Source: an uncultured Bacilli bacterium (GTDB taxonomy: Bacteria > Bacillota_I > Bacilli_A > RF39 > UBA660). From it: a DNA stretch of 64,000 nt. Location: the NCBI GenBank assembly GCA_934162285.1, contig CAKPHY010000004.1, positions 542-64,541 of the forward strand. Reading direction: 5' to 3'. The notes below the pieces were generated by a model, which saw only the letters and a list, made by a program, of their open reading frames with translations, was not told the origin of the DNA and did no database searches. The stretch's first letter is position 1. Each line of letters begins with the position of its first letter. This document shows, one piece after another, positions 33,636 to 38,765 of the stretch. The position numbers and the translations under genes are program-made.

Positions 33636-34640
33636 ATGAAATTAAATAATAAAGGCTTTGCTATAACAAGTATTCTTTACGCCGTTTTAATCTTGTTTTT
33701 ATCCCTAATTTTAGCTATGATGATGCTTTTAGCTAATCGAAAAATGGTATTAGATAAATATAAAGCTAATGTAAGAGAAGAACTAAATTCATCTAAAGAA
33801 ACATATGGTGCACATGTTCAAATCTCTAGTGATACAGTAAAGTTACGTATATATGAAGATGAATTCATGAATTTTGATATGAAATCTAAAGTATCTGGCT
33901 GCTTAAATGTTGCTAAAAAAGTGGAAAATCCAGAAGCAAGTTTATGTAGTGAAAATGAAAAAGATGTATCTGAATTAGTAAACTATAATATCTATGACGA
34001 ATTAGGTAATGAAGTTTTAAATTTTTCTTCTGAAGTATTAATAAGTGAAGATGGCTTTAAAACCGAAATAATAAAATATACTACCTATGAAAAAGATAGT
34101 AATAATAATTATGTAGTAGCAGAAGATGGAAAAAGTTTAAAAATAATTACTCATGATTTAACAGCAAATAAAAACAATATCTTTTTTGTAAACTACTATG
34201 TAGTTGATAATGCTAATATCCTTTCTAAAGCTAGTATTAGAAATATTATTATAGTAAAATATAACAATTATATTAATGTTTTAAATAATTATTTAAAAAT
34301 ATCAAGATCTGAAATTTTAACATATGATTTTTTATCTAAAGCTAAAGCATATAAATTAGAAACAACAACTGAAAACAATACCTTAAAACGTAAATTAGTT
34401 GCTGATCAACAAAGCTTAAATTATAAAATATACAATGCTGATGATTATGAAATAAAAGAATTCAAAATAGTTGATAACCAATTAGTATATAGCTACTGTA
34501 AAAAAAATATATGTGAAAGTAATGACACCTATTTTGAAGAGAAAATAACATCCGATGAAAAGTTTCGTGTAAGATACTTTACAGGTACTATAAATAATCC
34601 AACTTCTGAAATAAATTATGCTTACTTTAATGTTGAATAA
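33636..34640 (+). CDS. prepilin-like N-terminus protein (KG|FAITS..., no Glu5), function unknown
   Basis: MKLNNKGFAITSILYAVLILFLSLILAMMMLLANRK resembles a class III (type IV pilin) signal, but Ser replaces the usual Glu at +5. Confidence 0.4.
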   Translation: MKLNNKGFAITSILYAVLILFLSLILAMMMLLANRKMVLDKYKANVREELNSSKETYGAHVQISSDTVKLRIYEDEFMNFDMKSKVSGCLNVAKKVENPEASLCSENEKDVSELVNYNIYDELGNEVLNFSSEVLISEDGFKTEIIKYTTYEKDSNNNYVVAEDGKSLKIITHDLTANKNNIFFVNYYVVDNANILSKASIRNIIIVKYNNYINVLNNYLKISRSEILTYDFLSKAKAYKLETTTENNTLKRKLVADQQSLNYKIYNADDYEIKEFKIVDNQLVYSYCKKNICESNDTYFEEKITSDEKFRVRYFTGTINNPTSEINYAYFNVE

Positions 34641-34670
34641 AAAGCAAAAAAATGAATTTTTGCTTTTTTT
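34641..34670 (+). terminator. intrinsic terminator
   Basis: AAAGCAAAAA-aatgaa-TTTTTGCTTT followed by T run. Confidence 0.7.
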
Positions 34671-34901
34671 ATTTTTTGAAAAAATTCAAAAAAATAGAAA
34701 AATTTAAAAATAGAAAAATTAAAAAAGTATTGAAAAATAAGGAAAAAACACAAAAATAGGTTTACAAAAAATATTTCTTTTTTATAAAAAGGCTAAAAGT
34801 CATTTTTTTAAAAAATCATTTTTTTCTCAAAAAATTCTATTGCAATTAACTAAATATAATGCTATTATGAAGGTGTCATAAATAAGCATGGAGGTAGAAT
34901 T

Positions 34902-37199
34902 ATGGTAGGCTTAGGAGAAGAATTAAATGAATTAAAAGTCGTTAAAAGAGACGGACGTAAAGTTGATTTTAACGGAACTAAAATTGCGCTTGCAATTCAA
35001 AAAGGTTTTGAAAGTATCAAGATCATTGACGATGATAACGCATATGTATTTAAATATACTGAAAAAGATACTAATAAAGTATTTGTAGGCGTTATGAAAA
35101 AAATCGTTAAAGATTATAAAGACAAAGAAAAAATAAAAATCGAAGAAATTCAAGATTTAATAGAAGAACAATTAAAGAAAGATAAATATGAAGATGTTTA
35201 TGAAGCTTTTAAAGAATATCGTGAACGTAGAGCTTTATCAAGAGAAACATTCTTAGGCTTTGATGAAAAAAGACGTCATCGTTTATTAAAAGCCTTTGAA
35301 AACTTAGGCTTAAAATCAGCTCATGAAGAAGATGCTAAAAGAGAAAATGCCAATGTTGATGGTGATACCGCTATGGGAACAATGCTTCAATATGGTAGTA
35401 CTATTTCTCGTGAGTTTGCTAAGTCATACTTGATGAAGAAAAAATTTGCTGAAGCTCATGAAAATGGTGATATTCATATTCATGATATGGATTTCTTACC
35501 AATGGGAACTACAACTTGTACCCAAATCGATTTGAATAAATTGTTTAAAAATGGTTTTTCAACAGGTCATGGTCATTTGAGAGAACCAAATGATATTATG
35601 TCATATTCAGCTTTAGCAGCAATTGCCATTCAATCAAATCAAAATGATCAACATGGTGGTCAAGCAATCCCAGCATTTGATTTCTATTTAGCTCCAGGTG
35701 TTTTAAAAACTTTTAGAAAACAATTTAAACAAACATTATATGATATTTTAGATGTTACGGATTTTGCTCGCTTCTTAAATTTTGATAAAATTGCGCAAAC
35801 AATCGATAAATTAACAACAATAACAGTTGATATTACTATGTTAGAACCATTCTATAAAGATTCAACAGAAGTTAAAAGAATTTTTGAAAAAGCTTATGAA
35901 AAAGCTTTACAAAAAACTGATCGCATTACTTATCAAGCAATGGAAGCCTTCATTCACAATTTAAATACAATGCATAGTAGAGCAGGAGCTCAAGTTCCAT
36001 TTAGTTCAATTAACTTTGGAACTGATGTAAGTCCAGAAGGAAGAATGGTAATTAAAAATTATTTACTAGCTGCTGATGCCGGCTTAGGTCATGGTGAAAC
36101 ACCAATTTTCCCAATTTCAATTTTTAAAGTAAAAGAAGGCATAAATTATAATAAAGAAGATCCAAACTATGATTTATTCCACTTATCATGTGAAGTATCA
36201 GCAAAACGCTTATTTCCAAACTTCTCATTTATTGATGCTCCATTCAATTTACAATATTATAAACCAGGTGATTATCAAACCGAAGTAGGCTATATGGGTT
36301 GTCGTACTCGTGTTTTAGGTAATGTTGTTGATGAAGATCGTCAAATAACTCCTGGTCGTGGTAATTTATCATTTACTTCAATCAATTTACCAAGATTAGG
36401 TATTAAACATGGAATTGTTGGTGGCGCTGAAAAGCCAGATCTTGAAGGTTTTTATCAAGAATTAGGTGAAATGATGGAACTAGTTAAAGATCAATTATTA
36501 GAAAGATTTGAAATCCAATGCAATAAACGTGTTTATAATTTCCCATTCTTATTAGGTCAAGGTGTATGGATTGATTCTGAAAAATTAAAACCAACTGATC
36601 GCTTAAGAAAAGTATTAAGACATGGAACTTTAACTTTTGGTTTTATCGGTTTAGCTGAATGTTTAAAAGCATTAATTGGTAAACACCATGGTGAAGATCC
36701 AGAAGCTCAAAAATTAGGTTTAGAAATTATTGGCTTTATGCGTAAAAAAGCTGATGAATATGCTAGTAAATATCGTTTAAATTTCTCAGTAATAGCAACA
36801 CCAGCCGAAGGACTTTCAGGTCGATTTGTTAAAATTGATCGTGCTATATATGGAAAAATTAAAGGCGTAACTGATCGTGAATACTATACAAATTCATTTC
36901 ATATCCCTGTTTACTATAATATCTCAATTAAAAATAAAATTCATTTAGAAGCTCCATATCATGCATTAACTAATGCCGGACATATAACTTATATAGAGTT
37001 AGATGGTGATACAACTGCTAATGTTGAAGCTTTTGAAAAAGTAGTTCGTATTATGAAAGAAGAAGGAATTGGTTATGGCGCTATTAACCATCCAGTTGAT
37101 CGTGACCCAGTATGTGGTTATGTAGGAATTATTGGAGATGTTTGTCCAGGATGTGGTCGCCGTGAAGGTGAAGGAATTCCTGTAGATAAATTAAATTAG
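34902..37199 (+). CDS. nrdD: anaerobic ribonucleoside-triphosphate reductase NrdD, ending at an in-frame TAG before the glycyl-radical domain
   Basis: ATP-cone (VVKRDGRKVDFNGTKIALAI), class III RNR core, C-terminal Cys cluster (VCGY...VCPGCG). The ORF stops at TAG 37197-37199, without the RxxGY glycyl-radical motif. Confidence 0.88.
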   Translation: MVGLGEELNELKVVKRDGRKVDFNGTKIALAIQKGFESIKIIDDDNAYVFKYTEKDTNKVFVGVMKKIVKDYKDKEKIKIEEIQDLIEEQLKKDKYEDVYEAFKEYRERRALSRETFLGFDEKRRHRLLKAFENLGLKSAHEEDAKRENANVDGDTAMGTMLQYGSTISREFAKSYLMKKKFAEAHENGDIHIHDMDFLPMGTTTCTQIDLNKLFKNGFSTGHGHLREPNDIMSYSALAAIAIQSNQNDQHGGQAIPAFDFYLAPGVLKTFRKQFKQTLYDILDVTDFARFLNFDKIAQTIDKLTTITVDITMLEPFYKDSTEVKRIFEKAYEKALQKTDRITYQAMEAFIHNLNTMHSRAGAQVPFSSINFGTDVSPEGRMVIKNYLLAADAGLGHGETPIFPISIFKVKEGINYNKEDPNYDLFHLSCEVSAKRLFPNFSFIDAPFNLQYYKPGDYQTEVGYMGCRTRVLGNVVDEDRQITPGRGNLSFTSINLPRLGIKHGIVGGAEKPDLEGFYQELGEMMELVKDQLLERFEIQCNKRVYNFPFLLGQGVWIDSEKLKPTDRLRKVLRHGTLTFGFIGLAECLKALIGKHHGEDPEAQKLGLEIIGFMRKKADEYASKYRLNFSVIATPAEGLSGRFVKIDRAIYGKIKGVTDREYYTNSFHIPVYYNISIKNKIHLEAPYHALTNAGHITYIELDGDTTANVEAFEKVVRIMKEEGIGYGAINHPVDRDPVCGYVGIIGDVCPGCGRREGEGIPVDKLN

Positions 37200-37208
37200 G
37201 AGGAAAAT

Positions 37209-37373
37209 ATGGAAAAAGTTGAAGAAAAAATTGTTAAAGAACCTAAAAAAGTAGGCGAAGGCGTAGGCTTCGAAAGAATCAGAAGAATCACCGGTTATTT
37301 AGTAGGTACAGTAGATCGTTTCAACAATGCCAAAAAAGCTGAAGTAAGAGATCGTGTAAAACATACATTATGA
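37209..37373 (+). CDS. 54-aa stand-alone NrdD glycyl-radical domain
   Basis: Manual translation MEKVEEKIVKEPKKVGEGVGFERIRRITGYLVGTVDRFNNAKKAEVRDRVKHTL*. RRITGYL and FNNAKKAEVRDRVKH match the NrdD C-terminus (E. coli RRVCGYLG...FNAGKQEEVKRRVKH, from memory). Same frame as nrdD, 3 codons after its TAG. AGGAGG lies 7 nt upstream. The stop overlaps the nrdG start (ATGA). Too short for the ORF track. Confidence 0.8.
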   Translation: MEKVEEKIVKEPKKVGEGVGFERIRRITGYLVGTVDRFNNAKKAEVRDRVKHTL

Positions 37374-37921
37374 AAATTAGATTAGCAGGGCCTATTTTAA
37401 AAGATAGTATTGTAGATGGTCCGGGAATTCGAGCAGTAATATGGACTCAAGGCTGTAAACATGCCTGTCCTGGCTGCCATAATCCCGAAACTCATTCATT
37501 TACAGGCGGTACTCTTTATGATGTTGAAGATATAAAACATAAAATCGATGAATTAATCGATCAAGATGGTGTAACATTTTCAGGTGGCGATCCTATGTAC
37601 CAAATTGAAGCCTGTTTAGAATTAGCTAAATACATTAAAACTAAAAATTTAAATATTTGGTGTTATACCGGTTTTACATTTGAAAACATTTTAGAAAAAG
37701 CCAAAGAAAATAAAGACTACTTAGATTTTTTAGAACAAATAGATGTCTTAGTTGATGGACCATTTATTCTAAGTAAACGTAGCTTGAGTACTCTTTACAG
37801 AGGATCAACTAATCAAAGACTTATCGATGTTCCTAAAAGTTTAAAAGAAAATGAAACAATAACTATCGAAGAAAAAGATCGTAGATTAAAACAAGAAAAA
37901 AAAGAATGCATCTTTATTTAG
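37370..37921 (+). CDS. nrdG: anaerobic ribonucleotide reductase activating protein (radical SAM)
   Basis: GPGIR, CX3CX2C (CKHACPGC), GVTFSGGDP. 183 aa. Confidence 0.9.
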   Translation: MKIRLAGPILKDSIVDGPGIRAVIWTQGCKHACPGCHNPETHSFTGGTLYDVEDIKHKIDELIDQDGVTFSGGDPMYQIEACLELAKYIKTKNLNIWCYTGFTFENILEKAKENKDYLDFLEQIDVLVDGPFILSKRSLSTLYRGSTNQRLIDVPKSLKENETITIEEKDRRLKQEKKECIFI

Positions 37922-38765
37922 CATTCTTTTTTCTTGAATTTAATAACTCTAAATCATCTTCGTAATGAGACCCAATTTTTTCTAAATATTTTACCTTTTC
38001 TTCATTACCCATTTCACTTATAAAAAGGTGAATTTCATCTTTAAAATAACTAAGATCACCTTGAAAAATTACAATTAAACTTCTAAGAAATAATTCTAAA
38101 ATAGTCATAATAGGATCTTTGTCCCCATTAAAGTTACATAAAATTGAACTTAAAGCAGAACCAAAACAATTTTCAAGATCTAAACAAACAAGACCTAAAT
38201 CTTTTTTATCTTCAAGTAAGTTATTAAGTTTTTCAACATCAAAATTATTATCAGCCAGTGCTAAACTAAGTTCAGGACATATAAAAGGCATTTCATATTT
38301 TATGCGATCAAAGAAAAGCAAATTAGGATTCTTTTTGATCTCTTCTTCTAACAAAGTCAAAAAGATAATATGCAAATCTCGATTATTTTTAATACAAGAA
38401 TCACCACTATAACCACTTTTATCATTAAAATCCAGTTCAAATAAAAGAAAAGAAGTGTTAAAAATATAATTTTCAATCAAATTTGTATCAATACCTATTA
38501 AAAAAGGTACAGTGAATCCCTTAGGATAAACATTAAATTCAGTTTTTTTTAAAAAATATTTTTTTAAATCAACTCCTGTAATACCAGCTTTACTAAGTTC
38601 ATACAATTTTTGATTCAAACTTATTACAAGATCACGATATTTAATATTTATTTCTTCAAACTTTTTAGAATTTTTCTCACCATTTACATCTAATACATAA
38701 AGTTGCTCTAAATAATTATATAAATTTGAACCATCTTCATAAATAGCATCCAATAAAGTATCCAT
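37914..38765 (-). CDS. hypothetical cytoplasmic protein, paralogue A
   Basis: 283 aa, no TM segment. Collinear similarity to 38831..39709 (..NNFDVEKL.., ..GDLSYF.. compared with ..NNFDVDAL.., ..GDLTFS..; C-terminal GNEE...IG.H.EDD). Confidence 0.45.
   Translation of the reverse strand: MDTLLDAIYEDGSNLYNYLEQLYVLDVNGEKNSKKFEEINIKYRDLVISLNQKLYELSKAGITGVDLKKYFLKKTEFNVYPKGFTVPFLIGIDTNLIENYIFNTSFLLFELDFNDKSGYSGDSCIKNNRDLHIIFLTLLEEEIKKNPNLLFFDRIKYEMPFICPELSLALADNNFDVEKLNNLLEDKKDLGLVCLDLENCFGSALSSILCNFNGDKDPIMTILELFLRSLIVIFQGDLSYFKDEIHLFISEMGNEEKVKYLEKIGSHYEDDLELLNSRKKNAK

Follow-up and report, generated by a model that had tools for sequence, protein, structure and literature searches.

The window analysed here is a stretch of 64,000 nucleotides from an uncultured Bacilli bacterium (GenBank assembly GCA_934162285.1, contig CAKPHY010000004.1). 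It carries an operon that very probably encodes a class III ribonucleotide reductase (RNR) whose catalytic subunit, NrdD, is made as two polypeptides, a 765-amino acid body and a separately initiated 54-amino acid glycyl-radical subunit coupled to nrdG, the gene of the radical S-adenosylmethionine (SAM) activase. From the comparative sequence evidence, the probability of this reading is put at about 0.85. The split itself is real, old, widespread and independently initiated.

Organization of the nrdD-nrdG operon

A sequence-only reading of the window had described a 765-amino acid nrdD that ends after its cysteine cluster and is followed, in the same frame, by a 54-amino acid open reading frame (ORF) containing RRITGYL. 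This layout was reproduced, and the features of the operon are as follows (positions are those of the window).

34902..37199, plus strand: nrdD large ORF, 765 amino acids, C-terminal end ...CPGCGRREGEGIPVDKLN followed by the stop TAG at 37197-37199; without a glycyl-radical loop
Within 34902..37199, plus strand: domains of the large ORF, namely ATP-cone, ten-stranded barrel, Cys/Zn knuckle and short tail
34935..35234, plus strand: ATP-cone, large-ORF residues 12-111 (PF03477, E 2.1e-13)
36300..36302, plus strand: codon of Cys467 (MGCRTR motif), the putative thiyl-radical cysteine; aligns to chain position 420 of the Prevotella copri NrdD structure (PDB 8p23), numbered Cys416 in the published scheme (offset 4)
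37113..37154, plus strand: Zn-knuckle cysteine cluster C738 ... C748-P-G-C751; aligns to CGY...CPKCG, 8p23 positions 690-704
37161..37196, plus strand: split-specific tail REGEGIPVDKLN, large-ORF residues 754-765; a shortened form of the tail of split relatives
37198-37203, plus strand: Shine-Dalgarno (SD) sequence AGGAGG of the small ORF, overlapping the TAG; last G 5 nt 5' of the ATG
37209..37373, plus strand: small ORF, 54 amino acids, predicted free-standing glycyl-radical subunit, MEKVEEKIVKEPKKVGEGVGFERIRRITGYLVGTVDRFNNAKKAEVRDRVKHTL; stop TGA at 37371-37373
37293..37295, plus strand: codon GGT of Gly29, the predicted radical glycine (the G of RITGY); aligns to 8p23 chain position 715, which is Gly711 of P. 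copri NrdD
37370..37921, plus strand: nrdG, radical-SAM activase, 183 amino acids (TIGR02491, 154 bits for a cut-off of 126.1; PF13353, 2.4e-40)

Three codons, GAG GAA AAT, separate the TAG from the ATG at 37209, so that in the window the two ORFs share a frame across a gap of 9 nt. The perfect SD sequence that had been noted inside TAGGAGG is present; its spacing, earlier given as 7 nt, is 5 nt from the last G, the value depending on the point from which it is counted. Downstream, the ATG of nrdG (37370-37372) overlaps the TGA of the small ORF as ATGA.

Identity of the two polypeptides

The two ORFs divide a single NrdD between them. On the NCBIfam NrdD model NF005497 the large ORF covers positions 3-712 of 746 (1021 bits, cut-off 764) and the small ORF positions 710-744 (45.7 bits). 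On Pfam PF13597 they cover positions 1-531 (1.2e-185, 618.8 bits, cut-off 26.2) and 533-562 of 562, respectively. Aligned with the NrdD of P. copri (8p23), residues 13-754 of the large ORF correspond to chain positions 9-705 (E 3.8e-171) and residues 21-52 of the small ORF to positions 707-738. The last canonical NrdD element kept by the large ORF is the Zn-knuckle cysteine cluster. In the small ORF the N-terminal 15-20 residues are variable and rich in K and E, and the core is GEGVGFERIRRITGYLVGTVDRFNNAKKAEVRDRVKH. When the small ORF was searched against Pfam and NCBIfam (E up to 0.01), NrdD models alone were matched, with neither a Gly_radical nor a GrcA hit.

The residues expected to carry the chemistry are in place. 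Cys416 of the P. copri enzyme is the thiyl-radical cysteine that receives the radical from the glycine, and Gly711 is that glycine (PMC11226230). Cys467, aligned with the former, is invariant in 38 relatives of the large ORF, as are C738, C748 and C751. Barrel, thiyl cysteine and a neighbouring NrdG are thus all present, and the operon carries a glycyl-radical motif that is homologous to the C-terminus of NrdD. The RxTGY motif of a class III RNR belongs on the same chain as the barrel; here it sits on the separate 54-amino acid ORF. Because the glycyl-radical motif lies on a polypeptide apart from the barrel, the locus is best described as a variant class III RNR.

Conservation of the split in relatives

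A scan of one genome per species, from which the best 80 of 380 loci were kept (no two from the same assembly), recovered the operon from uncultured gut Bacilli, 'Tenericutes' and Mycoplasmatota-like metagenome-assembled genomes, including Ca. Coprovivens and Ca. Fimihabitans. In 67 of these 80 loci nrdD is split at the same place, and in 13 it is continuous. The statistics on split loci given below are for these 67 relatives and the window together (n=68).

The small ORF lies in frame 0 relative to the large ORF in 25 split loci, in frame +1 in 22 and in frame +2 in 21, and the large ORF ends with TAA in 44 and with TAG in 24. Between the two ORFs the spacer measures 1-49 nt (median 18), and the long spacers hold several stop codons; none of the bacterial gaps contains an endonuclease. 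Small ORFs are 47-61 amino acids long and begin with ATG in 67 of the 68 loci. An SD sequence, defined as at least 5 of the 6 bases of AGGAGG at a spacing of 4-12 nt, precedes 57 of them, as against 3.4% of random positions. The start of nrdG falls between -13 and +9 nt of the small-ORF stop in 63/68 loci.

Protein collections gave the same picture. The 33 closest large-ORF protein clusters (87-100% identity) are all 765-769 amino acids long and none is fused to the loop. The sense codon that sister genomes might have shown in place of the TAG was therefore absent from the nearest relatives; continuous forms do occur among more distant ones (the 13 of 80 loci above) and have no junction insert. 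Further out, the Gly loop is absent from 113 of the best 120 large-subunit clusters. In a collection of 5.8 billion proteins the best 120 matches of the small ORF are all 46-79 amino acids long. A representative library of 1.84 billion proteins yielded 2096 matches with E no higher than 1e-3, 578 of them no higher than 1e-10. Among the best 150 representatives, which measure 54-196 amino acids, 148 begin with M and lack a CxxC ahead of the Gly motif. In its core the small protein shares 80-90% identity with the loop of continuous NrdDs, and the RITGY...DRVKH signature is complete. In public databases the small ORFs are labelled 'hypothetical protein' (NCBI) or given the name of the enzyme (JGI), while the truncated large ORFs are called 'anaerobic ribonucleoside triphosphate reductase'.

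Within the species, a small protein 96% identical to that of the window (P0004) is encoded on at least 24 contigs from independent ENA and Logan samples (24 contigs were read, out of 80 index blocks). All have the layout of 765, 54 and 183 amino acids and the same neighbouring genes. At four same-species loci the operon has 98.7-99.2% nucleotide identity to that of the window, and the junction, with its TAG, agrees in every letter.

Both pieces are under purifying selection, with a ratio of nonsynonymous to synonymous differences per site (pN/pS) of about 0.22-0.26. Over the 35-codon core of the small ORF in split loci, pS is 0.615 and pN 0.136 (pN/pS 0.22; median ratio of substitution rates, dN/dS, 0.13); over the last 280 codons of the large ORF, pS is 0.617 and pN 0.157. 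The other two frames over the small ORF are closed in 68/68 loci.

Some further sequences touch on the small protein. A short Logan contig of 60% GC (L081:755-1090) encodes an NrdD-type radical peptide (MREFDHLPVIDGKVGNGVKFERIRRITGY...) preceded by an ORF that is not NrdD; the proteins P0188, P0194, P0230 and P0256 resemble this peptide and bear long mis-called extensions. The 90% clusters of the small peptides P0008 and P0082 list unrelated long members, a 466-amino acid protein and a 480-amino acid Kitasatospora Ser/Thr kinase, which are probably a clustering artefact of the collection.

Anatomy and proposed origin of the break

In 8p23 the Zn knuckle (CGY...CPKCG) ends at chain position 704 and the strand leading to the radical glycine begins at 708, which leaves a connector of 3 residues. 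Relative to P. copri NrdD and to the continuous relatives, the window has about 33 extra residues at the junction: the large ORF contributes 12, following CGR, and the small ORF about 21, ahead of ERIRR. The description of nrdD as a continuous gene interrupted by one in-frame TAG therefore had to be abandoned, and the frame shared by the two ORFs is a coincidence, frame 0 being seen in 25/68 loci.

Continuous relatives read CGF...CPGCGRTEADGVGFERIRRITGY, and split relatives, with one exception, have CGY. A conserved tail, ...CGRxxGEGV(S/P)VEKLxxLxCxCK and then the stop, closes the large ORF in 68/68 split loci and in 0/13 continuous ones. This tail aligns to the start of the conserved part of the small ORF in one register, GEGVSVEKL against GEGVGFERI, with a mean BLOSUM62 score of +21 over 9 residues and 4.2 identities; all other registers score negative. 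The tail is thus a diverged copy of the opening 9-12 residues in the conserved part of the small protein, and the split was accompanied by a duplication of 9-12 codons around the break. We propose that a DNA insertion or duplication occurred in the connector of 3-9 residues between Zn knuckle and Gly loop, and that this event would have left one copy of the 9-12 codon duplicate on each side, now seen as GEGVSVEKL in the tail and GEGVGFERI in the small ORF. In close relatives the tail of the large ORF reads ...GIPVDKLNSLNCDCK before the stop; that of the window, ...GIPVDKLN, is a shortened form of it.

Most split large ORFs end in a cysteine pair (CxC or CC) and several small ORFs end in CxC; the window has neither. 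The CxC of the small ORF sometimes occurs in loci whose large tail lacks the pair (for example L007, L028, L044, L054 and L077, among loci L001-L080). Conceivably the two pieces are joined through a common metal site or redox tail, though the cysteine pattern is inconsistent.

Free-standing and split copies in phages

IMG/VR was scanned with the small ORF, and the 80 loci obtained were classified by tblastn with the NrdD and NrdG of the window. An orphan small frame was found in 57 of them, with the core G.GV.FERIRRITGYLVGT.DRFN.AK.AE..DRVKH and with no barrel and no nrdG within 4 kb on either side. A continuous nrdD is present in 16 (including L133, whose junction reads continuous), and 2 have no usable motif. 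The others are split: L114, with nrdG downstream, and L116, together with L093, L112 and L113, in which the barrel and the small ORF are separated by further ORFs.

The three orphan contexts that were checked are all of phage type, with a terminase large subunit (L101), a Mu-type transposition protein (L087) and an endolysin (L134). The peptides in these examples, taken from loci L086-L152, are located as follows.

L087:3938-4126: orphan glycyl-radical peptide
L101:3932-4219: orphan glycyl-radical peptide
L134:3827-4144: orphan glycyl-radical peptide

Orphans fall into three sub-types: one of about 60 amino acids, a high-GC form beginning MNTTPMREFNHFPII, and one of about 105 amino acids that has an N-terminal domain of about 65 residues with no assigned identity (...VTVDGDY.E.DYH..PFERIRR). 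Their cores comprise 44 distinct DNA sequences in backgrounds of 26-61% GC, with pS 0.855 and pN 0.190 (pN/pS 0.22). In a partial check, no orphan contig was found among the best 80 of 177 viral contigs carrying an NrdD barrel. PHROGs has no family for the free peptide, which matches only the last 35 or so positions of its NrdD families.

In L112 (3180-3665) and L113 a gene for an HNH homing endonuclease (phrog_59, E 8e-38) stands exactly between a barrel-only nrdD ORF and the glycyl-radical ORF, whereas L116, a related contig, shares the small ORF but lacks the endonuclease. The comparison hints at the way in which such splits come about, or else at a gap prone to receive mobile genes. The cultured Eggerthella phage EL753P1 (L166, OP172808.1, 3741-7175) has a barrel-only nrdD, then a hypothetical ORF of 102 amino acids, then a 42-amino acid 'hypothetical protein' that ends with ...GEGVGFERIRRI at its stop. 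The rest of the Gly loop (TGYLTGSADRWNDAKKAELRDRVKH) follows, unannotated, in another frame after a 5-nt insertion, TGACC. The change of frame may reflect a sequencing error, a genuine disruption of the gene or programmed frameshifting.

Other features of the window

The window has 26.5% GC and is a bacterial chromosome segment, with RelA/SpoT and PASTA-deacetylase genes among its contents. A promoter and terminator scan, in which signals did not exceed shuffled expectation, gave no plus-strand terminator between the large and small ORFs. In the 260-nt region 5' of nrdD an AT-rich direct repeat (aaaaatagaaaaatttaaaaatagaaaaattaaaaaag) without an Rfam match occupies 34686-34730, between an AT-rich hairpin 3' of the preceding gene and a promoter-like TTGCAA-17-TATTAT (34840-34868). 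Directly 3' of nrdG lie two adjacent minus-strand ORFs without a Pfam match. By eye they resemble paralogues, with similar ends (...GNEE.....I/L.IG.H.EDD..L), and both are syntenic in the same-species contigs L082-L085.

37914-38765, minus strand: ORF of 283 amino acids
38831-39709, minus strand: ORF of 292 amino acids

Proposed mechanism

Glycyl-radical enzymes are usually described as bearing the radical glycine on the barrel chain, and its buried domain swings out to meet the activase. Oxygen inactivates such enzymes by cutting the chain at the radical glycine. In the two-piece enzyme, NrdG would abstract a hydrogen atom from Gly29 of the 54-amino acid protein, perhaps while the peptide is free or loosely bound, so that no tethered radical domain would have to swing out of the barrel. 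The Gly loop would then enter the barrel and lie close to Cys467, the place it takes in single-chain NrdD, and the reaction would run as in a normal class III RNR. Such an arrangement could bring several benefits. After cleavage by oxygen at the radical glycine only a 54-residue peptide, and not the 765-residue body, would need to be replaced; access for the activase might be easier; and, through the coupling to nrdG, activase and substrate would be supplied together.

In single-chain NrdD the radical domain is highly mobile, and in the dATP-bound state it is disordered while the glycyl radical still forms (PMC11226230). On physical grounds, then, a loop that can detach is plausible. That the peptide can act in trans is suggested by the phage genomes that carry it alone under purifying selection. 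One may go further and regard the NrdD loop as an exchangeable, diffusible protein cofactor, the phage orphans being activated by host NrdG and loaded into split-type or oxygen-cleaved host NrdD, so as to sustain deoxynucleoside triphosphate (dNTP) synthesis during infection. We offer this extension tentatively, as a possibility with somewhat less in its favour than against it.

Alternative explanations

A single stop in an otherwise intact gene is the usual signature of decay, and the sequence-only reading had listed a recent nonsense mutation or a base-call error beside a true two-piece enzyme and TAG readthrough. That the window holds a mutated gene, a sequencing error or a pseudogene is nevertheless most improbable: the identical junction recurs in independent assemblies from different samples, the architecture is kept in 67 other species with strong purifying selection on both parts, and the 33 or so junction residues, the SD sequence and the ATG are absent from continuous forms. 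Recoding, in which TAG readthrough, frameshifting or ribosomal bypass would yield a single fused NrdD, draws on the fact that the two ORFs of the window are in one frame and only 9 nt apart. We give it the same very slight credence. Readthrough, frameshifting and bypass are ruled out as a general mechanism by the even distribution of frames (25/22/21), the TAA stop in 44/68 loci and the spacers of up to 49 nt, the long ones with several stops; moreover, 67/68 small ORFs have their own ATG, most with an SD sequence. TAG is an ordinary stop in the window, as had been noted earlier: among its 56 long ORFs, 28 end with TAA, 20 with TAG and 8 with TGA. Its sole tRNA gene is that of tRNA-Asn, and no Rfam element was matched within 34300-38200 on either strand (E up to 0.1). 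Two related candidates were also rejected: pyrrolysine or suppressor recoding, on the frame and stop statistics and the normal use of TAG, and protein trans-splicing, since a gap of 9 nt and a small ORF of 54 amino acids leave no intein-sized sequence.

The other alternatives accept two proteins and assign them different roles. The 54-amino acid protein might be a spare part that rescues an oxygen-cleaved, full-length NrdD encoded elsewhere in the genome, with the truncated large ORF as an auxiliary acceptor; the orphan NrdD-type peptides of phage contigs, useful without a linked barrel gene, lend this some appeal. Yet the small ORF always lies directly 3' of a loop-less barrel ORF that is conserved as strongly as the peptide, the 33 closest large-ORF clusters all keep the truncated length, and no two of the species loci kept (the best 80 of 380) come from one assembly, which makes a spare part unlikely, though less so than any other alternative weighed here. 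Still less probable, and only slightly ahead of recoding or decay, is a new role in which the truncated NrdD is inactive and the small protein either acts on NrdG, as decoy or regulator, or donates a radical to a different glycyl-radical enzyme, for example. Phage orphan copies might indeed inhibit the host RNR instead of helping it, but Cys467, the ATP-cone and the barrel are conserved, the small-protein core stays close to the loops of continuous NrdDs and nrdG is still coupled. The comparative evidence thus favours the true two-piece class III RNR, which had been the first of the possibilities listed from the sequence.

Some observations weigh against the two-piece enzyme. When the two pieces were joined and modelled with AlphaFold2, from a shallow alignment of 38 sequences at 75-90% identity, the mean predicted local distance difference test score (pLDDT) was 63.9 and fell below 50 for residues 755-819, which include the radical loop, so that the model was of too low a quality to reveal docking. 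The tail of the window is the shortest seen and lacks the terminal cysteine pair of most relatives; since it is a relative's tail in shortened form, the pair appears dispensable. Neighbour-joining trees (280 amino acids; barrel only, 719 columns, 100 bootstraps) intersperse split and continuous forms, and in the barrel tree the two states are not cleanly separated, 5-8 state changes being needed in all 100 bootstrap trees. The radiation of the barrel is star-like at 75-80% identity, and the C-terminal signatures (CGF or CGY, presence of the tail) are class-specific. The split may have had either a single origin followed by recombination or arisen by repeated events, neither of which the barrel tree favours.

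By barrel-only distances, the nearest relatives of the window in the species set are continuous forms (L001, L013 and L006; 79-80% identity), despite its split-type C-terminus. Recombination of the C-terminal module may lie behind this, or else a radiation that is poorly resolved.

Significance

The operon provides a natural and widespread case in which the radical loop of a class III RNR would be a free 6-kDa protein. It makes testable the activation of a free peptide by NrdG, docking in trans and cheap repair after exposure to oxygen. If the loop is indeed an exchangeable cofactor, this would be the first spare-part or trans-acting radical-domain system among glycyl-radical enzymes outside pyruvate formate-lyase (PFL), and the orphan copies in phages point to an auxiliary gene of a new kind. 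These gut anaerobes have small genomes, and a class III RNR could be their chief source of dNTPs. Genomes of the split type would be misclassified by RNR surveys whose filters use length or the C-terminal motif, and in current annotation the truncated large ORFs are labelled as complete NrdD.

Comparison with known systems

Single-chain class III RNRs, such as P. copri NrdD (8p23) and phage T4 NrdD (1h78), have the same order of domains as the operon described here (ATP-cone, MGCRTR barrel, Zn knuckle, RITGY loop and C-terminal tail) and an adjacent nrdG. They differ from it in that here the loop is on its own polypeptide with its own start, and where P. copri NrdD has a connector of 3 residues, the split form has a stop, a spacer, an SD sequence and about 33 extra residues distributed over the two pieces. 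A search of the literature found no description of a class III RNR with a separate, conserved radical-loop polypeptide, nor of orphan NrdD-type peptides; it returned only splits of class I and II enzymes, introns and inteins in phage nrdD, and spare parts for PFL. Subscription journals were mostly outside the search, and an earlier mention is possible.

Free glycyl-radical spare parts are known only for formate lyases, for example YfiD/GrcA and T4 Y06I (PMC13450708; PMC8683613), and such proteins have been considered possible for other glycyl-radical enzymes (PMC8683613). GrcA/YfiD of E. coli and Y06I of phage T4 are, like the small ORF, small free-standing glycyl-radical-loop proteins, with phage-encoded copies in both systems. 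As in those systems, the peptide would presumably be activated by the parent's activase and inserted in a barrel without a working loop. The analogy with YfiD/GrcA made in the sequence-only reading is sound as such, whereas membership in that family is not: the small ORF is homologous to the C-terminus of NrdD and not of PFL, and it has less than half the size of GrcA. Furthermore, GrcA rescues an oxygen-cleaved, full-length parent, while here the linked parent ORF has no loop, so that the peptide, as the enzyme's only radical loop, would be obligatory and not a back-up.

RNR genes in pieces have precedents. In phages nrdD is the RNR gene most frequently split (Dwivedi et al. 2013, PMC3653736), with an intron in T4, an interrupted gene in Lactococcus phage 949, an intein in Clostridium phage c-st and fragments in Aeromonas phage phiAS4 (PMC3653736). 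Introns, inteins or unexplained fragmentation, all within the barrel, account for those cases; unlike the split described here, none is bacterial and none is described as giving a conserved, separately translated glycyl-radical peptide. In other classes, the catalytic subunit is split in the class II NrdJa/NrdJb of Pseudomonas aeruginosa (cited in PMC9669993) and in the class Ia NrdA-a/NrdA-b of Aeromonas phage Aeh1, where the homing endonuclease mobE interrupts the gene (PMC2988022; PMC3653736). The window shows what defines such genes in pieces, two adjacent, separately translated and conserved ORFs, without a mobile element in its 9-nt gap. As with NrdJa/NrdJb and Aeh1 NrdA, the catalytic subunit would come from two adjacent ORFs whose products need reassembly, and the phage relatives L112 and L113 have an HNH endonuclease in the gap. 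The present split differs from both systems in the class of RNR and the point of the break, the detached piece here being the radical cofactor itself, and also in that it is fixed in many bacterial species, whose gaps hold no endonuclease.

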